From: an uncultured Candidatus Saccharibacteria bacterium
GTDB taxonomy: Bacteria; Patescibacteriota; Minisyncoccia; Phycocordibacterales; UBA918
DNA: 64,000 bases
Direction: 5' to 3'
NCBI GenBank assembly: GCA_964643955.1
Contig: CAZXUO010000003.1
Coordinates: 19,865 to 83,864 of the forward strand
Shown: piece after piece, positions 18,014 to 56,148 of the stretch
Position numbering within the stretch: the first letter of the stretch is position 1
Layout: each line of letters opens with the position of its first letter
Notes under the pieces: generated by a model
What the model was told of the DNA's origin: nothing
The model's database searches: none
The model's input: only the letters and a program-made list of their open reading frames with translations
Program-made: the position numbers and the translations under genes

Positions 18014-18385
18014 ATGAATAAGAAAAAGTTGGGGAAAACGAATACTATTAAGCAGGGCGACACGAAAAATTCGGGCCGTACATACCCTCGCCCGTCGTGG
18101 GTGCCTAAAACCGTTTTAGGCGAGGAAGAACTGTGCCCTGATTGCTTTAAGGTTGTCGGAGAGAGAAGCCGCTATAATCTTGTGTGTACGTTGGGTAAGA
18201 ATGCAGAGGGTATGACGGTTGGCGAATTGACTGAAACCATGAAGTTGCGTCAGCCTACGGTTACGCATCATTTGCAAGTTCTTCGTTCCGTCGATGCTGT
18301 TGAGATGGAACCGCGAGGTCGGGAACGTATTTACAAACTTAATCGAGGAGCGCACTGCTTCGAAGAGTGTAAAATCCCTTATTAA
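18014..18385 (+). CDS. ArsR/SmtB-family transcriptional regulator with extra Cys pairs (CPDC…HCFEEC)
   Basis: wHTH recognition helix 'LRQPTVTHHLQVLRSVDAV' (ArsR 'QPTVSHHL' signature). The stop lies 6 nt before the nirK start. Confidence 0.7.
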   Translation: MNKKKLGKTNTIKQGDTKNSGRTYPRPSWVPKTVLGEEELCPDCFKVVGERSRYNLVCTLGKNAEGMTVGELTETMKLRQPTVTHHLQVLRSVDAVEMEPRGRERIYKLNRGAHCFEECKIPY

Positions 18386-18391
18386 CATTCT

Positions 18392-19612
18392 ATGGAACTA
18401 TTTTCATATCTTTGGCAGTATCTAGTGGGGGGCTTCGGTCTTGTGATCGCGTACGGCTTCGCGGCGATATTTATTTTTCTTGTGTTGCGCCAGTTCCATT
18501 CATGGAAAATCACTACAGCACTTGTCGCTATTTTTATAGGTGCCTCGATTGCCTTTTATGTTCCAAACGGTATTCCTCATGCATTTGAATATCCTCTGGG
18601 ACTCCGCACCTTTGGACCTTCCGAAGGTCCCGTTCTGCCGCTTTCAAATGTATTTTCGTTCTTGAAGAATTTCAGCTCGTTTGAGCGTGTCGCGAATATT
18701 GCCCGCAATCCCGATGACGTACCAGGCACAGCCGTGCAGAGTGTAGACGGTATCGTTGAAATCAACCTGGTTGCAAAGGAGGTGGTCGGTGAGATGGCCG
18801 ATGGAGTGACGTTTAACTATTGGACATTTGATGGCACCGTTCCAGGCCCATTCTTGCGAGTGCGCGAAGGCGATACGATTCGTCTAACACTTACGAACGA
18901 TCCATCGAGTCTGCATCATCACTCAATCGATCTTCATGCAGTAACTGGTCCAGGAGGAGGAGCGGCCGCCACTATAGTCGCGCCTGGCGAAAGCAAAACG
19001 ATAACGTTCAAGGCTTTGAATCCTGGCATTTTCATTTATCACTGCGCACATCCGAATGTTGCAAATCACATGGCACATGGGATGTATGGATTAATTCTTG
19101 TTGAGCCAGAGGAAGGACTACCTCCCGCAGACAAAGAATTTTACCTTGTGCAAGGTGAATTCTACAGTTCAGGATCACTTGGCCGTAAAGGACTTCAACT
19201 CTTTGACGCCCAGGCGATGCTTGAAGGGAAGCCACAATACATCGTTTTCAACGGCAAAACCGGCGCACTTGTTGATAATATGAAAGCCGATGTGGGTGAC
19301 ACCGTTCGCCTATATATTGGTAATGGCGGAGTCAATCTTATCTCCAGCTTCCACGTGATTGGCGAGATTTTTGACCGCGTATACCGAGAGGGAGACCTAG
19401 TAACTCCTCCTGCACAGAGCGTGCAGACTACGTTAGTTCCAGCTGGAGGCGCTGCAATGGTTGAGTTTAAGGTTGATTACCCGGGTAATTACGTTCTTGT
19501 TGACCACGCACTCTCTCGACTTGATCGTGGCGCGTGGGGAGTCCTGCATGTTGAGGGAGAAGCAGACCCAATGATTTTCGATGGAGAGATACAGAGCGGT
19601 CACGGACATTAA
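18392..19612 (+). CDS. nirK: Copper-containing nitrite reductase NirK with N-terminal two-TM anchor
   Basis: 'HHHSIDLHAVTGPGGGAA…PGIFIYHCAHPNVANHMAHGMYGLILVEP' carries the type-1 and type-2 Cu ligand pattern (H-x4-H, HC, H, M). Two cupredoxin domains. N-terminus 'MELFSY…' is hydrophobic. Confidence 0.85.
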   Translation: MELFSYLWQYLVGGFGLVIAYGFAAIFIFLVLRQFHSWKITTALVAIFIGASIAFYVPNGIPHAFEYPLGLRTFGPSEGPVLPLSNVFSFLKNFSSFERVANIARNPDDVPGTAVQSVDGIVEINLVAKEVVGEMADGVTFNYWTFDGTVPGPFLRVREGDTIRLTLTNDPSSLHHHSIDLHAVTGPGGGAAATIVAPGESKTITFKALNPGIFIYHCAHPNVANHMAHGMYGLILVEPEEGLPPADKEFYLVQGEFYSSGSLGRKGLQLFDAQAMLEGKPQYIVFNGKTGALVDNMKADVGDTVRLYIGNGGVNLISSFHVIGEIFDRVYREGDLVTPPAQSVQTTLVPAGGAAMVEFKVDYPGNYVLVDHALSRLDRGAWGVLHVEGEADPMIFDGEIQSGHGH

Positions 19613-19634: not shown

Positions 19635-19976
19635 CTAAATTAAGCTCAGTTTTTTCTCTTTAAGAAGCATCCTGCTTCTTAGGTGGCTCAGCAATTCTCG
19701 CTTCTCGTACATCGGGCGCTTCCGTAAGATGTACTTTGCGTAATTCCGGATATCTATTTCCTTGATTTTTACCTTTTCCTTAACTTCGCGCCCTAGCACC
19801 GATTCTTGGAATTCATTGTGCGCCAATATCTCAGCTTTAATCCTGTCTTTCATTCCGATCTCGTCCAACGACACAGTATCGAGTATTTCCGCTAGCTGTT
19901 CGGTCAGTTCCTCCTCCCGGATGTAGCCGCATGGGCAATCCTTATCCCTGAATTTCGTGCATCCGTAGTGGGACAT
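19635..19976 (-). pseudogene. Remnant of a large serine recombinase (C-terminal zinc-ribbon and coiled-coil only)
   Basis: 'YGCTKFRDKDCPCGYIREEELTEQLAEIL…' resembles the recombinase zinc-beta-ribbon and coiled-coil region. No catalytic resolvase domain upstream. Sits in a ~42%-GC islet. Confidence 0.45.
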
Positions 19977-20226: not shown

Positions 20227-20454
20227 TTAATATTTAACGTTTTTAGCAAGAATTGTAATTTTAGATTTTAGGCACGCAAGTAAGTCTCGTAATGACCATA
20301 AAATTTTGGTTTATCGATAGGATGGTTGGCCTCGTGGAGAAGAGCTAGTATTGTTTCTGGACTAATGTTTGGCGTGGGTTGTCGCGTAATGTATAGAGTG
20401 GGGATGTAAAGCTCGCTTTACTCTCTCGAAGTACCTGCATATAATGAGCGGCGT

Positions 20455-20667
20455 ATGCAGGAGAAGATAAAGAATGCGGTGAGTAAGTACCGAATGCAAA
20501 TGGGCGTGACTCAAGAGGAGCTTGCTTCCAAAGTGAATGTAAGCCGCCAGACGATCATTGCTCTGGAGAAAGGGAATTACACACCATCAATCTTACTAGC
20601 GTTAAAAATTGCTGGTTTTTTTAAGATGCCTGTAGAAAAGCTCTTTAACATTTCATATGAGAAATAA
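20455..20667 (+). CDS. XRE-family (Cro/C1-type) HTH transcriptional regulator, YozG-like
   Basis: 'MGVTQEELASKVNVSRQTIIALEKGNYTPSILLALKIAGFF' is a classic XRE HTH; 70 aa. Confidence 0.75.
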   Translation: MQEKIKNAVSKYRMQMGVTQEELASKVNVSRQTIIALEKGNYTPSILLALKIAGFFKMPVEKLFNISYEK

Positions 20668-21019
20668 TCTAATCGAGGCAGTGGTCACGATCGCGCTGGT
20701 TGGTATTGCGGTGTTACTCCTCAATCCATTTCATTTCTGGATGCCTGACATGATGGTGATCTGCATGCTTGCAATCACTCTCGGTCTGTTTGGAATATTT
20801 GCAAGCTTTATTCTCCGAGAGGGTGCCGCGGATGAACGCGATAGTGTGCACCGCACGCTCGCCGGAAGAAATGCATTTCTTGCAGGCTCTGGCGTACTGA
20901 CGCTTGGGATCGTTATTCAGGGATACACACACTCGGTTGATCCGTGGCTTGTTGCGGCGCTCGTCGTGATGATTGTTGTGAAGATTGTGACGCGGGTGTG
21001 GAGTGACAAAAATCGGTAA
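20657..21019 (+). CDS. Small membrane protein (DUF2178-like) translationally coupled to the XRE regulator
   Basis: Overlaps the regulator stop by 11 nt; three to four TM helices. The yozG-like regulator plus DUF2178 is a known two-gene module. Confidence 0.5.
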   Translation: MRNNLIEAVVTIALVGIAVLLLNPFHFWMPDMMVICMLAITLGLFGIFASFILREGAADERDSVHRTLAGRNAFLAGSGVLTLGIVIQGYTHSVDPWLVAALVVMIVVKIVTRVWSDKNR

Positions 21020-21129
21020 AGCCAGACCAAGTTATCCACCAAAGCAGATGTAAAGTACACTTTACATCTGCTTTGGTGTTTATTACACTTATGTTCATAC
21101 AAGAGCATTAAGCGGCAAACATCTTTCTT

Positions 21130-21630
21130 ATGAACAAGCTCACGGGAATCATTTTAGGAATCGTCATCATCATAATCATTGCAGGTGTTGCATATGCGTC
21201 GCTCATGCAGCGTGAGGACGAGATGGTCGATGCAAAGATGGAAGAGGCAGGCATGATGGATGAAAAGATGATGTCACCAGAAGACGAGAAGATGATGGCT
21301 GATGAAAAAGAGATGGCCGCGCCAGGAGTTTATGAATCGTATGCGCCCGAGAAGCTCGCGCGAGCAGAGACGGGCGACGTCGTGTTGTTCTTCCACGCAT
21401 CGTGGTGCCCTTCGTGCCGCGGACTCAATGCAGATATTGAGAAAAATCTCGATGCAATACCGTCTGGGGTAAATATCTTGAAGGTGGATTATGACTCAGA
21501 GACAGAGCTCAAGAAGAAGTACGGCATTACCTACCAGCACACACTCGTGCAGGTTGCGGCCGACGGCACGATGATTAATAAGTGGAGCGGCAGTCCAACG
21601 CTCAGTAGCGTAGTCTCAAACATCAATTAA
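21130..21630 (+). CDS. Membrane-anchored thioredoxin-like protein (TlpA/ResA-like, WCPSC active site) with a Met/Glu/Asp-rich linker
   Basis: TM helix 'LTGIILGIVIIIIIAGVAYA'. Linker 'MVDAKMEEAGMMDEKMMSPEDEKMMADEKEMAAP' has 11 Met in 34 aa. Thioredoxin fold with 'FHASWCPSCRG'. Confidence 0.7.
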   Translation: MNKLTGIILGIVIIIIIAGVAYASLMQREDEMVDAKMEEAGMMDEKMMSPEDEKMMADEKEMAAPGVYESYAPEKLARAETGDVVLFFHASWCPSCRGLNADIEKNLDAIPSGVNILKVDYDSETELKKKYGITYQHTLVQVAADGTMINKWSGSPTLSSVVSNIN

Positions 21631-23445
21631 ATGATTTTTTTCGGCATCTCAGTACTCGCAGGTATCTTCACCGTCGTTGCGCCTTGTATATTGCCGCTTC
21701 TCCCGGTGGTGATGGGCGCATCAGAGACGGGTGATCGGCATGTTGGGAAGCGGGCGCTCATCGTCATTGGTGCGCTCTCGCTCTCGGTCATCATCTTCAC
21801 GCTTTTACTCAAAGCAACAACCCTCCTCATTGGTATTCCGCAAGTATTCTGGAGTTGGTTTTCTGGTAGTATCATCATCGCCGTAGGGTTTGCGATCACG
21901 TTTCCTTCATGGTGGGCGCGCGTGCCATACATTAATAAAGTGAGTGTACTCAGCAATCAGGCGGTCGGTGCGGGATATCAGAAGAAAAGTTATACCGGTG
22001 ATGCGCTGATGGGACTTGCGCTCGGTCCAGTTTTTACCACGTGCTCACCGACATACCTCTTCATTATTGCGACCGCGCTCCCTGCGACGTTTGCAACCGG
22101 CCTTTTGTATCTCTTCGGCTTCACGTTTGGGCTTGCTCTCTCACTTCTTGTGATTGCGTATTTTGGACAAACGCTCATCAATGCGTTGAATGCGCGCATG
22201 GATACTGCCGGAAGGGCGAAGCAAGTATTCGGGATTCTCATCATCGTGGTCGGGGTTTTGATCGTGACTGGTTTTGATAAAAAGATAGAGGCGTACATCC
22301 TCGATTCCGGCTATGGCGCGACGATACAATTAGAAAATAAACTCATCGAGCAATTTGCTCCCACATCTATGTCGACAAAAGAAGCACGCACGAGTGGTGG
22401 TGCCTACGAAACGATCACGCTCGCAGGAGGTTGTTTCTGGTGTACCGAGGCGTACTTTCAAGAACAAGAGGGAGTCATTGATGCAGTGTCGGGATATGCA
22501 GGTGGAGACGAATCGACTGCGTCGTATCTCGTGGTTGCGCAAGGTACGACGAAGCATCGAGAGGCAGTACAGGTGACGTACGACCCAGAAATTATTTCTA
22601 CTGAAAAGATTCTCGATATTTATTGGTCACACATCGATCCGACAAATACGGTCGGACAGTTTGCTGATGAGGGTTTCCAGTACACAAGCGCAATCTTTTA
22701 TCACACCGATGAGCAGCATGCGGTTGCGCATGATTCCAAGAATCGACTTGAAGTGAGTGGTCTCTTTGATAAACCAATTGCAACTGAAATTCTTCCGTTC
22801 AGTACTTTCTTTAAGGCGGAGGAGTATCATCAGGACTATTATAAGAAGGCGTCCGATCATTATGAGCGGTACAAGGAAGCGTCGGGTCGCGCTGGATTTG
22901 TCGAGGAGACGTGGGCGAAAGATGCAGCTATTCAATTTTTAGAATCGGAAGAAACAAAAACTATGAACACAAACGAGTCGTCGAAGAGTGACAACAAGTA
23001 CGAGTATACCGATGAGGAAATTGCAGAAAAGTTAAAAAACCTTGATCCACTTGCGTATCATGTGGTTGCTGAAAATGGTACCGAGTCACCATTTAATAAC
23101 GCCTACTGGGATAATAAGGCGGACGGCATCTATGTGGACATCGTGACAGGTAAGCCGCTGTTTTCGAGCACGCATAAGTATGACTCGGGTACCGGCTGGC
23201 CAAGTTTCTGGAGGACTATCGATGATGATTCGGTGACGATGCATGAAGATAATTCGCTTTCAACGACCCGCACCGAAATACGAACTGAGGCAGGGCATGT
23301 CGGGCATGTGTTTGAGGATGGGCCCGCAGAAGAAGGGGGAAGGAGATTTTGTACCAACTCCGCATCACTTCGGTTTGTACCAAAAGCGGACATGGAAAGA
23401 GAAGGATATGGTCAGTACCTGTATCTCTTCACGGAATCAGTTTAG
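21631..23445 (+). CDS. msrAB: CcdA-MsrA-MsrB tri-domain fusion (membrane thiol-disulfide transporter fused to both methionine sulfoxide reductases)
   Basis: N-terminal ~230-aa CcdA/DsbD-type domain with Cys in TM helices ('VVAPCILPLLP', 'FTTCSPTYLF'). MsrA motif 'LAGGCFWCTE'. MsrB domain 'GTGWPSF…HVGHVFEDGP…RFCTNSASLRF'. Start ATG overlaps the upstream stop (TAAATGA). Confidence 0.85.
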   Translation: MIFFGISVLAGIFTVVAPCILPLLPVVMGASETGDRHVGKRALIVIGALSLSVIIFTLLLKATTLLIGIPQVFWSWFSGSIIIAVGFAITFPSWWARVPYINKVSVLSNQAVGAGYQKKSYTGDALMGLALGPVFTTCSPTYLFIIATALPATFATGLLYLFGFTFGLALSLLVIAYFGQTLINALNARMDTAGRAKQVFGILIIVVGVLIVTGFDKKIEAYILDSGYGATIQLENKLIEQFAPTSMSTKEARTSGGAYETITLAGGCFWCTEAYFQEQEGVIDAVSGYAGGDESTASYLVVAQGTTKHREAVQVTYDPEIISTEKILDIYWSHIDPTNTVGQFADEGFQYTSAIFYHTDEQHAVAHDSKNRLEVSGLFDKPIATEILPFSTFFKAEEYHQDYYKKASDHYERYKEASGRAGFVEETWAKDAAIQFLESEETKTMNTNESSKSDNKYEYTDEEIAEKLKNLDPLAYHVVAENGTESPFNNAYWDNKADGIYVDIVTGKPLFSSTHKYDSGTGWPSFWRTIDDDSVTMHEDNSLSTTRTEIRTEAGHVGHVFEDGPAEEGGRRFCTNSASLRFVPKADMEREGYGQYLYLFTESV

Positions 23446-23556
23446 ACCGATAATCAACCGGATAGGCCTCCGCTTGCAGAGATTTCAGTGGTTCACAATG
23501 GGCGGGTTTCAAGGGTACTTTTCATTGGTATAATTTTTCTAATGGGTCACGTATTG

Positions 23557-25455
23557 ATGCGGAGCGCATGGACAGCGGTTTTTGCTATTGCGCTCATGTT
23601 TCCTTCATACATTTTTGCAGCAGATGAGCCGATCATGCATCTGAAATTTGATGATGGTTCTGGTACGACACCGCAGGATAGTAGTGCAAACAATGTCGAT
23701 GGCTCTTTCACTGCGACGCAGCCGACATGGTCGACGACGGTTCCTGATGTGGCATTTGATAATCCCCGTTCGCTCGACTTCACGGGATCAAATGATGGTG
23801 TGAATGTGACGTGGCCTGAAGCACTCGACTTTGCCGCAACTGACCCACGTACATTTTCATTCTGGTATCGTCCGACAGCGAATGGAGAAGGAGCGTATTC
23901 ACGCCTCTTGAGCTGGACGAGTGACCAGTTGGAAATTGCCGGTACGGAGGCTGGTGGGTCAACGCACAAGATCACATACTACGATGGTGAGTGGCATGCG
24001 ACTGACATCACATTGTCGATTGGTACGTGGTATCACGTGACGTTTACGTATGATGGAACGACTGCAAAGTTTTATATTGGTGATGAACTCCAAGATGAGC
24101 ATGCACTCGCAGGGCGTGCACTGAGCGGAACTCTTAAAATAGGTAATCGTGTTCAGGATGGAAATGAAGGTATCAATGGTCAGATGGATGATATTCGCAT
24201 CTATGACTATGCACTCAATGCGACGCAAGTCGGGAATCTTGCGTCGGGATCAAATGATCCAGACTCAGCGCCGGATGAGACCGCACCAACGTTTTCGAGT
24301 ATTAGCGCAAGTGCATCCTCGAGTGGTGCGACCGTGACATGGACAACCAATGAAGCGGCTTCGACTAAAGTCGTCTACTCAGTCGATGGTACCTACGCAT
24401 CTTCGACAGCGCACACCGATACATCGACGCGCGTGACGAGTCATAGTACAAGCGTGAGTGGACTTCTCTCGTGTACGTTGTATTGGTATCGAGTCGTTTC
24501 AGCTGATGCGGCGGGGAATTATGCGACCTCCACCGCAAGTCAGACTACGTTTAGTACAACCGGCTGTACGGGAGGAGACTCACCACAGATCTCGTCTGCA
24601 ACTCTGGCCACCAATGCAGGTGCAACGACAACACGCACGACGAGTGGACGAAGTTTGGCTGTCCATACACCAGAAAATTTTACCGATGATGTGGATTCGG
24701 TTGTGTTGCAAGTCGCATCATTGACGTCAAGTAGTGCACTTGGCGTGATCGGAAAACCTAATAGCAGCCTCACGAGTGCTGCCGCGTATGTGTTTGATGT
24801 GAAAGCATTGATCAACAACACAACTGAACTCGATTCATTTGATCTTCCGGTCAGGCTCACACTTACGTATACCGACGCAGACATGAGCGGACTCGATGAA
24901 AGTTCACTTGCTATGTATCACTACTCAGATAGTGCATGGTCAGAGCTTGATGACTGTACGGCCAATACGACAGCGAATACCATCACCTGTGAGACAGACA
25001 GTTTTTCGATATTTGGAATTTTTGGGACAGGGACGAGTGGAAGTGGTAGTACATCTGGTAGTGGCGGCGGTATACGATATGGATGCAAGGATAAGTCTGC
25101 ATTGAATTACGAGTATTTTTCTTCACACCGACAAGATTTGTGCAGATATACTGAGGTTCAGACAGGTTTGTGTCCGCGATACCAATTCACACGTCGACTC
25201 CAGTTTGGAAGTGAAGGAGAGGATGTGCGGGCATTACAAAAATTCTTGAATTGTGCCGGATTTACGATTGCATACGAAGGGCTTGGTGCGCCCAGTAACG
25301 AGACTTTATATTTTGCAGACCGTACGCTCGCAGCAGTGAAGCTCTTTCAAACAGCGTATGCTACTGAGATACTTTTGCCAGGTGGCTTCTTGAGTCCAAC
25401 TGGAATTTTTGCAACATTTTCACAAGCTAAAGCATACAGTCTGATGCAGCCATAA
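23557..25455 (+). CDS. Secreted surface protein: LamG/concanavalin-like lectin domain, FN3-like domain, C-terminal PG_binding_1 domain
   Basis: Signal peptide 'MRSAWTAVFAIALMFPSYIFAADEP' chosen over the tool's upstream start. 'GQMDDIRIYDYALNATQV' is typical of LamG_3. The C-terminus 'GSEGEDVRALQKFLNCAGF…AVKLFQTAYATE' is peptidoglycan-binding-like. TGGTATAAT lies at 23524–23532. Confidence 0.6.
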   Translation: MRSAWTAVFAIALMFPSYIFAADEPIMHLKFDDGSGTTPQDSSANNVDGSFTATQPTWSTTVPDVAFDNPRSLDFTGSNDGVNVTWPEALDFAATDPRTFSFWYRPTANGEGAYSRLLSWTSDQLEIAGTEAGGSTHKITYYDGEWHATDITLSIGTWYHVTFTYDGTTAKFYIGDELQDEHALAGRALSGTLKIGNRVQDGNEGINGQMDDIRIYDYALNATQVGNLASGSNDPDSAPDETAPTFSSISASASSSGATVTWTTNEAASTKVVYSVDGTYASSTAHTDTSTRVTSHSTSVSGLLSCTLYWYRVVSADAAGNYATSTASQTTFSTTGCTGGDSPQISSATLATNAGATTTRTTSGRSLAVHTPENFTDDVDSVVLQVASLTSSSALGVIGKPNSSLTSAAAYVFDVKALINNTTELDSFDLPVRLTLTYTDADMSGLDESSLAMYHYSDSAWSELDDCTANTTANTITCETDSFSIFGIFGTGTSGSGSTSGSGGGIRYGCKDKSALNYEYFSSHRQDLCRYTEVQTGLCPRYQFTRRLQFGSEGEDVRALQKFLNCAGFTIAYEGLGAPSNETLYFADRTLAAVKLFQTAYATEILLPGGFLSPTGIFATFSQAKAYSLMQP

Positions 25456-55228: not shown

Positions 55229-55603
55229 ATGTCACATGGAAAAATCGTGATGCTCGGCATCGCATTCGTCGTCATTATCTTTGTTGGGTTTGGGATTTGG
55301 AATCGTACAACTCCCGGGAAATACGATACGTTTGCACAGTGCATCAGTGATGCAGGCGCGACCTTTTACGGCGCGTTTTGGTGTCCTCACTGCCAGGATC
55401 AGAAGTCGATGTTCGGACGTTCTGCTGAAAAACTTCCGTACAAAGAATGTTCGACACCAAATGGTCAAGATCAAGTTGCAGAATGTGATGAGGCTGGTGT
55501 AACTGGTTATCCAACATGGTTCTTCTCAAACGGTGAGAAGCTCGAAGGAATTCAAGAGTTCTCAACGCTTTCTGAAAAGACTGGTTGTGCGCTTCCTGTA
55601 TGA
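55229..55603 (+). CDS. Membrane-anchored thioredoxin-fold oxidoreductase (DsbA/BdbD-like, CPHC)
   Basis: TM then 'GAFWCPHCQDQ'. TGTTATACT lies 9 nt before the ATG. The stop overlaps the dsbB start. Confidence 0.65.
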   Translation: MSHGKIVMLGIAFVVIIFVGFGIWNRTTPGKYDTFAQCISDAGATFYGAFWCPHCQDQKSMFGRSAEKLPYKECSTPNGQDQVAECDEAGVTGYPTWFFSNGEKLEGIQEFSTLSEKTGCALPV

Positions 55604-56148
55604 TCCCACTCGAGACACTGAACTATTGGCTTGCGCTGGGAGCAATCGTACTCCAGCTCGTGACGCTCTATATCCTTGTCGAACATTTCTTTCTTAAAGA
55701 AAAGTACGTAACACCGTACCTTCATCGATTTGGATTGCATATCGTTTTTCTCGTGAGTGCCGCTGCAGCGCTGCTCACCCTCGTGTATTCGGAAGTCTTC
55801 GGTTTTATTCCTTGTGGACTTTGTTGGATGGAGCGCGTGTTCCTGTATCCTATTGCGATCATCTCGCTTGTTGCGCTCTACAAGCTGCGTCACGGCGCAC
55901 GTGATACTGCTGTTGCAGATTACGGCATAGCGCTTTCGGGTATCGGTGCAGTCATTGCGACATACCACCATTACCTCCAGATGGGTGGCAGTGCACTCAT
56001 CGCGTGTCCGACTGCAGGCGAAGGTGTTGATTGTGCAAAACGTGTCATCTTCGAATTTGGCTATGTGACGTTTCCGCTCATGGCTGCGATTGTCTTTGCG
56101 TTCATCATTATGACGCTCCTCGTGTATCGTACGGGTTCGCGTACCTAA
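55600..56148 (+). CDS. dsbB: Disulfide bond formation protein B (DsbB/BdbC family)
   Basis: Four TM helices. First-loop 'PCGLCWMERVFLYP' Cys pair and second-loop Cys pair 'ACPTAGEGVDC'. Confidence 0.7.
   Translation: MIPLETLNYWLALGAIVLQLVTLYILVEHFFLKEKYVTPYLHRFGLHIVFLVSAAAALLTLVYSEVFGFIPCGLCWMERVFLYPIAIISLVALYKLRHGARDTAVADYGIALSGIGAVIATYHHYLQMGGSALIACPTAGEGVDCAKRVIFEFGYVTFPLMAAIVFAFIIMTLLVYRTGSRT

Follow-up and report, generated by a model that had tools for sequence, protein, structure and literature searches.

The window analysed here is a 64,000-nucleotide (nt) stretch of contig CAZXUO010000003.1 (positions 19,865 to 83,864 of the forward strand) from an uncultured Candidatus Saccharibacteria bacterium, and positions given below are those of the window unless a related locus is named. 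It contains a thioredoxin gene whose product begins with a signal-anchor or signal peptide, continues through a tether rich in methionine (Met) and ends in a thioredoxin (Trx) domain. The open reading frame (ORF) which follows (21631..23445, +) encodes a protein of 604 residues joining a CcdA-type membrane module to the methionine sulfoxide reductase domains MsrA and MsrB, in that order. An original prediction, made from the DNA letters, had placed both ORFs at exactly these coordinates and described the second as starting on the stop codon of the first. The genes are indeed immediately adjacent, but they share no bases: the junction reads ...ATT TAA ATG ATT..., with the stop codon at 21628..21630 and the ATG at 21631..21633, so that the genes abut without overlap across a 0-nt spacer. 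The locus is a variant of the known CcdA–thioredoxin–MsrAB pathway. The unit appears to be larger than the original prediction held, taking in a regulator and membrane-protein gene pair upstream together with a shared putative operator. It is probable that these four genes and two promoters form a Patescibacteria cassette which builds a cell-surface system for the reduction of methionine sulfoxide, equipped with a tether serving as a sink and with a common operator.

The fusion protein and its thioredoxin

The reductase domains of the fusion are recognised with ease. Pfam PMSR (PF01625) matches residues 261-412 (E=4e-57) and TIGR00401 scores 174.8 bits against a cut-off of 108.1, while Pfam SelR (PF01641) matches residues 471-584 (E=1.7e-41) and TIGR00357 scores 169.4 bits against a cut-off of 113.05. 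In the MsrA motif GCFWC the cysteine at +3 is that which acts as resolving Cys in Bacillus-type enzymes. The whole fusion holds exactly five cysteines (C19, C138, C268, C271 and C574), all of them invariant in 121 homologues. In the MsrB domain the resolving Cys has been replaced by Thr, the sequence reading SGTGWPSF where the solved MsrAB fusions 7E43, 5FA9 and 3E0M have SGCGWPSF. No Zn-binding CxxC pairs are found in this domain, of which C574 is the sole Cys. Lacking both the resolving Cys and the CxxC pairs, the MsrB is thus predicted to be of the 1-Cys, Zn-free type, the sulfenate of which would need an outside thiol. Such a state marks a subtype of MsrB and is compatible with membership of the family.

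The CcdA module is more divergent. Pfam DsbD_TM (PF02683) matches residues 6-212 at 26.1 bits, below the cut-off of 27.1, although many close homologues have a precomputed match to this family. A phmmer search of the PDB with the single fusion sequence gave no CcdA match. The sub-threshold match is rescued by a profile of 13 transmembrane (TM) domain sequences, which finds the solved CcdA of Thermus thermophilus (5VKV) with E=1.5e-9 over profile positions 4-224. In this alignment the Cys of TM1 matches C19; the region of TM4 is gapped, with the Cys of the chain one column off that of the profile. C19 lies within APCILPLLP and C138 within GPVFTTCSPTY, and both are invariant in the 121 homologues and in 13 divergent family members. 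These domain matches bear out the proposed union of CcdA, MsrA and MsrB in one polypeptide.

Six hydrophobic segments are seen by hydropathy in the CcdA module. An AlphaFold2 model of the fusion, used for helix counting alone, likewise has six membrane helices, with TM1 and TM4 broken at the two cysteines; its confidence is low (mean predicted local distance difference test (pLDDT) 65.8, predicted template modelling score 0.43). Across 121 sequences, Lys and Arg together average 11.3 in loops 1-2, 3-4 and 5-6, and 3.1 in the N-terminus, loops 2-3 and 4-5 and the post-TM6 segment. This charge bias predicts that both termini lie outside, and the Msr domains with them. Members of the same MsrAB clade are found behind a single-TM anchor (loci L036 and L038) or behind a signal peptide with SLH-like repeats (L035). 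The nearest relatives of the CcdA module, meanwhile, carry Redoxin-Thioredoxin_10 or DUF3179 at the equivalent C-terminal position. The charge bias, the homology to a solved CcdA and the relatives with other anchors agree in predicting an outside location for the Msr domains, and the topology analysis thereby speaks against placement in the cytoplasm. The orientation given to CcdA is based on prediction and on its homology to DsbD, taken from general background.

The thioredoxin matches Pfam PF00085 above the cut-off (E=1.8e-11). The peptide quoted in the original prediction as its Met-rich linker, KMEEAGMMDEKMMSPEDEKMMADEKEM, is found in the translation, and the description of a WCPSC thioredoxin with such a linker holds. 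Export of this protein is predicted from its N-terminal helix and from relatives which have a lipobox (P0122 and P0123). Its domain is modelled as a thioredoxin-like beta/alpha fold over residues 66-166 with pLDDT >90. Y22 is conserved in at least 90% of homologues, and a conserved Y-A-S, a potential signal-peptidase site, closes the hydrophobic helix. Of 40 related loci (L001-L040), 36 have a thioredoxin ORF immediately ahead of the fusion, and in 35 of these 40 the genes are separated by 0-5 nt or overlap slightly; in L021 the gap is 61 nt. The closest thioredoxin relatives not resembling those of Patescibacteria, P0122 and P0123, are tandem double-Trx lipoproteins of 270-279 residues with a lipobox. 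Neither has a Met-rich N-terminal linker, although the linker between the two domains of P0122 is mildly enriched in Met.

Fusions of this kind are widespread in one phylum. A word-indexed search yielded over 120 clusters with the same three domains, about 600 residues long and 73-81% identical, and the source names given are all Patescibacteria or Paceibacteria. With one genome per species, a nearly complete fusion, covering query residues 1 to 552 or beyond at 68-80% identity, occurs in 34 loci and thus in at least 34 reference genomes, all labelled as Patescibacteria lineages: Paceibacteria, Nomura-, Falkow- and Lloydbacteria, WWE3, Microgenomates and metagenome-assembled genomes (MAGs) assigned to Saccharibacteria. 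Matches in Desulfobacterota, Anaerolineales, Vibrio, Idiomarina and others cover the MsrAB part only, at 44-51%. An exhaustive search of representatives at 50% identity gave only a handful of full-length clusters. Several variants of the architecture accompany the fusion. P0241 is CcdA–MsrA alone, while P0514 is a polypeptide of 689 residues arranged as CcdA–Trx–MsrA–MsrB, from a lineage using genetic code 25, in which UGA is read as Gly. L036 (6007..9638) combines a single-TM MsrAB with a Met-rich thioredoxin and a DipZ-type CcdA-Redoxin-Thioredoxin_10 protein, L035 (5353..6996) has an MsrAB with a signal peptide and SLH-like repeats, and L038 (6049..7242) a single-TM MsrAB. A 2026 review table of MsrAB architectures lists Trx-MsrAB, MsrAB, TM-MsrAB and MsrBA; a CcdA fusion is absent from it. 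Literature searches found no published description of a CcdA–MsrAB fusion, or of Msr in the Patescibacteria (candidate phyla radiation). The fusion had been called unusual, which it is by the standard of characterised systems; within the Patescibacteria, however, it is the norm. It is thus a routine protein of one phylum, annotated simply as 'MsrA' and uncharacterised in the literature.

The Met-rich tether

The tether had been credited with 11 Met in 34 residues. This is an overcount: there are 10 Met in the 37 residues from 26 to 62, and at most nine in any stretch of 34. Even so, the segment stands apart from its surroundings. Background Met is 2.5% in the 67 gene-like ORFs of the window, the next richest stretch of 37 residues in any ORF has five Met, and the probability of at least 10 Met is ~1.8e-8 for a single stretch of this length, or ~4e-4 when corrected over all stretches. 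Linker length in 120 thioredoxin homologues varies from 11 to 80 residues with a median of 43, and the median number of Met is nine; the adjoining Trx domain is only 1.1% Met. Met makes up about 19% of the linker in 118 of these 120, despite identities of 45-75% and differing base composition among the loci. In the 118 orthologous linkers (the P0124-P0240 set) the figures are 19.2% Met and 42.8% charged residues, with a mean net charge of -6; Lys accounts for 12.9%, and His and Cys for 0.0%. The sequences themselves are highly divergent and barely alignable. The property conserved in the tether is therefore its composition, and examination of the orthologues fails to refute the original prediction, since the Met-rich stretch is retained in that sense rather than as a sequence. 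Residues 28-60 are modelled as coil with pLDDT <50, and the tether is predicted to be disordered.

The placing of Met within the 118 linkers is far from random. Adjacent pairs (MM) were observed 279 times against 170 expected (z=+10). Closely spaced pairs are by contrast nearly absent, with 3 MxM against 138 expected (z=-13), 6 MxxM against 110 (z=-11) and 26 MxxxM against 88 (z=-7), and Met residues 5-7 apart are enriched (z=+5 to +14). The MM doublets return about every 6-8 residues, usually as [A/T/G]-M-M-[D/E/K]. In L036 the Met-rich linker is retained, although MsrAB is there separate from CcdA.

Met-rich exported segments are also found in other phyla. Marinobacter sp. C7 (L063, 3374..7152) has a signal-peptide protein of 95 residues rich in Met, Asp, Glu and Lys, after which come a response regulator, a histidine kinase and an exported MsrAB. 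In L050 (Desulfobacteraceae) and L065 (Ghiorsea) it is the exported MsrAB itself which has a Met-rich N-terminal linker. That such segments recur independently beside exported Msr enzymes favours the idea of a sink. As separate observations, an ORF of 97 residues rich in Met, Lys, Asp and His lies near MsrAB in a Zetaproteobacteria locus (L073, 8195..8488), and the MsrAB ORF of L047 has a Met-rich stretch somewhere past its first 200 residues.

Upstream genes and a shared palindrome

Two genes precede the thioredoxin gene (Table 1). The first encodes an XRE-family helix-turn-helix (HTH) regulator; 22 of 40 related loci keep it upstream, with order and strand unchanged, at 60-96% identity. The second encodes a small protein with four TM segments. 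The window protein itself has no Pfam match, but many homologues at 73-83% identity carry PF09946 (DUF2178). Its outer loops contain the near-invariant motifs NPFHFWMPDMM and QGYTHxVDPW, which are rich in Met, His and Trp, and this DUF2178-like protein is a candidate sensor partner of the XRE regulator. A limited text search found no published study of a DUF2178/XRE pairing, and searches for DUF2178 gave nothing relevant.

The two transcription units appear to be linked by a palindrome. The window holds only two matches to it, against 0.21 expected. The first, which differs from the core at two positions, lies before the regulator gene, and 18-19 of 22 related loci have a copy of the motif 18-60 nt (mostly 40-60 nt) before the HTH start as called. 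The second forms the core of a perfect hairpin in the 110-nt gap before trx. Across 20 loci the inner 8 bp of this hairpin (ATGTAAAG/CTTTACAT) show little or no variation, and six of the outer pairs show double compensatory changes. No Rfam family was matched, the sole hit being a spurious microRNA (E=0.096). The TTTACA and TAYACT boxes of the accompanying promoter are kept at equal spacing across loci. Most related loci (at least 17 of 22) have exactly two copies of the motif, one ahead of each transcription unit, and the extended stem is confined to the trx-proximal copy. We infer that the palindrome GTAAAG-N4-CTTTAC is a putative operator of the XRE regulator shared by the two promoters; the trx-proximal copy is read as doubling as the terminator of the regulator transcript. 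Control of the trx-msr genes by the regulator is thus suggested as probable.

The cassette may have been passed between lineages. Its four proteins are 45-96% identical across the L001-L040 MAGs, which are assigned to different classes of Patescibacteria (the fusion itself is 62-80% identical), whereas the flanking genes are unshared. This suggests lateral spread, identities of 68-81% between classes seeming too high for vertical descent, although the MAG labels may be unreliable. Over 16-28 kb the guanine-plus-cytosine profile runs through the cassette without anomaly, giving no signal of foreign DNA.

Other genes lie around it. An ArsR-type HTH gene (18014..18385) precedes one (18392..19612) for a copper nitrite reductase of the NirK type, the N-terminus of which bears a membrane segment. 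Directly downstream of the cassette, a LamG protein of 655 residues (23488..25455) combines a signal or anchor, a LamG-like domain and an FN3-like region, and ends in a peptidoglycan-binding domain; only three of 40 related loci have it next to the cassette. These three genes were rejected as parts of the cassette, being neighbours in 0-3 of the 40 loci. A possible recombinase remnant, an ORF of 113 residues at 19635..19976 (-), was also set aside, its zinc-ribbon match being sub-threshold (E=0.067) and too weak to claim. Farther away, at 55229..56148, a TM-anchored thioredoxin-like protein (FWCPHC, 124 residues) overlaps the start of a DsbB-family gene (PF02600, E=3.3e-13). The two proteins are likely to be a disulfide-forming pair, in which case the cell surface would hold both oxidising and reducing thiol pathways.

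Table 1. Coordinates of the features of the cassette
Feature	Position	Strand	Details
Palindrome copy 1, ATGTAAAG-N4-CTTTACTC	20404..20423	+	Putative operator over the -35 of the regulator promoter-like site
Regulator promoter-like site	20417..20445	+	TTTACT-17-TATAAT
XRE-family HTH regulator	20455..20667	+	70 aa; Pfam HTH_3 E=2.1e-13
Four-TM DUF2178-like membrane protein	20657..21019	+	120 aa; present in 25/40 related loci, same order and strand
Perfect hairpin	21037..21078	+	19-bp stem, then T-rich tract; core is palindrome copy 2, ATGTAAAGTACACTTTACAT, 21048..21067
Sigma-70-like trx-ccdA-msrAB promoter	21061..21089	+	-35 TTTACA in descending hairpin arm, 17 nt, -10 TACACT
Thioredoxin gene	21130..21630	+	166 aa; signal-anchor or signal peptide, Met-rich tether, Trx domain
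Thioredoxin N-terminal hydrophobic helix, residues 3-25	21136..21204	+	Kyte-Doolittle hydropathy 2.87; AlphaFold2 helix 3-23
Met-rich acidic tether, residues 26-62	21205..21315	+	10 Met in 37 residues; quasi-repeat [A/T/G]-M-M-[D/E/K]
Thioredoxin active site W92-C93-P94-S95-C96	21403..21417	+	W92, C93, P94, C96 invariant, S95 at least 90% (85 homologues)
CcdA-type six-TM module, fusion residues 1-245	21631..22365	+	C19 (21685..21687), C138 (22042..22044); conserved post-TM6 helix
MsrA domain, fusion residues 259-412	22405..22866	+	GCFWC residues 267-271 at 22429..22443; C268 catalytic, C271 resolving
MsrB domain, fusion residues 469-604	23035..23445	+	Catalytic C574 (23350..23352) in RFCTNS

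Probable electron route, possible role of the tether and significance

The direction in which electrons would flow can be judged from characterised relatives. A pathway from CcdA through Etrx to MsrAB2 has been shown experimentally in S. pneumoniae (PMC3914529), and the trx, ccdA and msrAB genes are functionally linked in F. nucleatum (PMC9239216). More generally, the membrane domains of CcdA and DsbD pass electrons to thioredoxin-fold proteins (PMC3322552; PMC3914529). The CcdA1–Etrx1–MsrAB2 system of S. pneumoniae, like the loci of S. gordonii and F. nucleatum, has the same three activities side by side as the cassette, and the S. pneumoniae pathway shares its presumed electron direction and its monoderm-type setting. 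The differences are in construction. In the cassette CcdA and MsrAB form one polypeptide, whereas S. pneumoniae encodes them separately and MsrAB2 is held by a TM anchor of its own. The thioredoxin of the cassette appears to be anchored by its N-terminal helix and has no lipobox, unlike the S. pneumoniae type, and it has the Met-rich tether, none being reported for Etrx1 or Etrx2. In further contrast to the S. pneumoniae pathway, a single thioredoxin would serve both Msr domains and the MsrB has no resolving Cys. An XRE/DUF2178 pair, finally, would take the place of the two-component system of S. pneumoniae-type loci.

Two other families offer useful comparisons. Neisseria PilB resembles the cassette in coupling Trx, MsrA and MsrB in the envelope, with reducing power supplied through a membrane protein of the DsbD family. 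In PilB it is the thioredoxin which is fused and DsbD which is separate, while here CcdA is fused and the thioredoxin separate; P0514 fuses all four. The closest relatives of this CcdA outside Msr proteins are the modules of DipZ/Rv2874-type fusions (44-50% identity), which share the C-terminal fusion point and the post-TM6 segment DKKxExxxLDxG. Their passenger is however a thioredoxin-like ectodomain rather than MsrA–MsrB, and in L036 a DipZ-type protein occurs together with an unfused TM-MsrAB and a Met-rich thioredoxin.

The S. pneumoniae pathway, the F. nucleatum linkage, the adjacency of the genes and the domain order of P0514, in which Trx sits between CcdA and MsrA as electron flow would have it, together point to a route from CcdA through thioredoxin to MsrAB. 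Cytoplasmic thioredoxin would reduce the C19/C138 pair of the six-TM CcdA module, which would in turn reduce the exported thioredoxin at C93/C96. The latter would then reduce both MsrA, at the C268–C271 disulfide, and the 1-Cys MsrB, at its C574 sulfenate, the two domains hanging outside the cell from the C-terminus of CcdA. Fusion to CcdA may serve mainly as a membrane anchor, keeping the reductase close to the source of its electrons in a cell without a periplasm. The extracytoplasmic unit proposed in the original prediction is supported on these sequence grounds, and both the electron route and the outside location of the unit are very likely.

For the tether, the closest parallel is MrpX of Azospira suillum, an unfolded periplasmic peptide with 20% Met, 44% charged residues and a poorly conserved sequence, which serves as a sacrificial target of hypochlorite and is restored by MsrP (YedY) (PMC4436054). 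Tether and MrpX are alike in being exported and unfolded, as predicted for the tether, with about 20% Met and more than 40% charged residues, in their poor conservation and in their coupling to a methionine sulfoxide reductase. The likeness is one of composition alone, making the tether an analogue, with no family membership claimed. The proposed logic is the same in the two systems, namely sacrificial oxidation followed by enzymatic recycling. MrpX is however a free peptide whereas the segment here belongs to a thioredoxin, the enzyme is in this case the thiol-based MsrA/MsrB fed by CcdA rather than the molybdoenzyme MsrP fed by MsrQ, and the host is a monoderm-like Patescibacterium rather than a proteobacterium. 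The MM-doublet pattern is specific to the Patescibacteria linker family. The disordered tether of about 40 residues, composed mainly of Met, Asp, Glu and Lys, may thus do within the thioredoxin what MrpX does as a separate peptide. Hypochlorous acid (HOCl) or peroxide would oxidise its paired methionines, which MsrA and MsrB alongside would afterwards restore; as oxidation of Met yields both epimers, both domains should be required for this. Besides repairing surface proteins, the unit would thereby remove oxidant in a catalytic manner, at a cost in cytoplasmic reducing power. Such a sacrificial role for the tether, argued by analogy, is held tentatively, as a little short of probable.

Met-rich helices provide a precedent of a different sort: those of SRP54 and of chloroplast Hsp21 are amphipathic and bind client proteins. 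The tether could likewise be a docking or client element, either an oxidised pseudo-substrate which recruits the Msr sites or an amphipathic surface lined with Met for unfolded, oxidised clients. MM doublets every 6-8 residues or so, with the enrichment of spacings 5-7, might line up Met along one side of a helix, and the protein which carries the tether must visit both Msr domains. Set against this, the structural model has a low-confidence coil and no helix in the tether, the periodicity is loose (5-7) rather than a strict heptad, and the mean net charge of -6 speaks against a hydrophobic binding surface, so that a docking role seems quite unlikely. A second role offered by the original prediction was the binding of Cu(I). 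Dense Met in company with acidic residues would suit a surface site for Cu(I) or Ag(I), as in CueO, PcoA/CopA, CusF or the 'Mets' of Ctr1, which would bind or buffer copper; the NirK-type gene lies 1.5 kb upstream (TIGR02376, 334 bits), and the Met-rich ORF close to MsrAB in Zetaproteobacteria contains His. Yet the spacings suited to chelation are precisely those which the linkers nearly lack, His and Cys are missing while Lys is plentiful, NirK is a neighbour in none of the 40 related loci, and the conserved partner is a methionine sulfoxide reductase and no copper protein. The exclusion of chelating spacings, the want of His and the absence of NirK from 40 neighbourhoods make copper binding very unlikely, and a copper-binding linker was rejected on the spacing of Met and the absence of His. 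Between the two roles originally offered, the sacrificial sink is favoured. It is also unlikely that the tether is a mere flexible, charged spacer, allowing the thioredoxin to reach CcdA and the Msr sites, in which Met is a by-product of slippage with no redox role. The predicted disorder, the wide variation of the linker in sequence and length and the short, Met-poor linker of the all-in-one P0514 would all be expected of a spacer. A neutral spacer should however drift towards Ser, Gly, Pro, Thr and Asn, as the linker between TM and MsrA has done in L036, whereas Met is held at about 19% in nearly all homologues despite their divergence and differing base composition. The non-random doublet pattern further implies a constraint on the linker, and exported MsrAB proteins of other phyla have Met-rich segments of independent origin beside them.

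Regarding the electron route, the fused CcdA might reduce its own MsrA and MsrB directly and leave the adjacent thioredoxin to serve other surface substrates. The CcdA cysteines and the Msr domains do share one polypeptide, and MsrA possesses a CxxC-like motif in GCFWC. Against this stands the habit of known CcdA/DsbD membrane domains of handing electrons to thioredoxin-fold partners (PMC3322552, PMC3914529), together with the translational adjacency of the thioredoxin gene in 35 of 40 related loci. P0514 moreover inserts its thioredoxin between CcdA and MsrA, and in L036 the same Met-rich thioredoxin accompanies an MsrAB which is not fused to CcdA. Direct reduction is accordingly considered highly improbable, and transfer by way of the exported thioredoxin is preferred.

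Several points nevertheless weigh against the reading adopted here, in which the exported thioredoxin feeds MsrAB and its tether acts as an oxidant sink. Electron transfer, export and the oxidation of methionine are all inferred, the model of the fusion is of low confidence, and the link between regulator and target has conserved synteny and a shared motif as its whole basis. If the thioredoxin is cleaved at Y-A-S it would not be tethered. A simple sink does not account for the doublet pattern, in which spacing 1 is raised and spacings 2-4 are nearly absent, and the MrpX-like ORF of Marinobacter lacks this pattern. The DNA of the linker is of low complexity, rich in GAT, GAA and ATG, and replication slippage thus partly shapes it. 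Finally, the four-domain fusion P0514 has no Met-rich linker; the tether is therefore dispensable for electron transfer, and its added role could be a different one.

With respect to regulation, the XRE regulator, probably together with the DUF2178-like protein, would control both its own promoter and that of the trx-msr genes through the palindrome lying over the two -35 boxes. A fuller scheme, which is speculative and on balance doubtful, would make the locus a self-regulated and possibly mobile 'methionine-cycle' oxidant reductase on a naked cell surface. The tethered MM repeat would act as a catalytic sink for HOCl or peroxide, recharged by the fused MsrA and MsrB through CcdA and thioredoxin, and the outer loops of the DUF2178-like protein (FWMPDMM and QGYTH) would sense oxidation and either free the XRE regulator or activate it at the two operators.

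Patescibacteria are tiny, mostly uncultured and often surface-attached bacteria with few known oxidative defences. If the reading favoured here is correct, a compact, conserved and apparently widespread cassette would be a main line of their oxidative defence, spending cytoplasmic reducing power at the cell surface. The tether would extend the principle of sacrificial Met from the molybdenum-dependent MsrP of proteobacteria to the thiol-based MsrA and MsrB, and would indicate that an oxidant sink can be built into the electron carrier itself. The variants TM-MsrAB, SLH-MsrAB, CcdA–MsrA, CcdA–MsrAB and CcdA–Trx–MsrAB constitute a Rosetta-stone set of fusions in support of electron flow from CcdA through Trx to Msr. 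The shared putative operator, meanwhile, offers a concrete regulon for the DUF2178/XRE pair and, should the membrane protein prove to be a sensor, such pairs would gain their first assigned signal and regulon.

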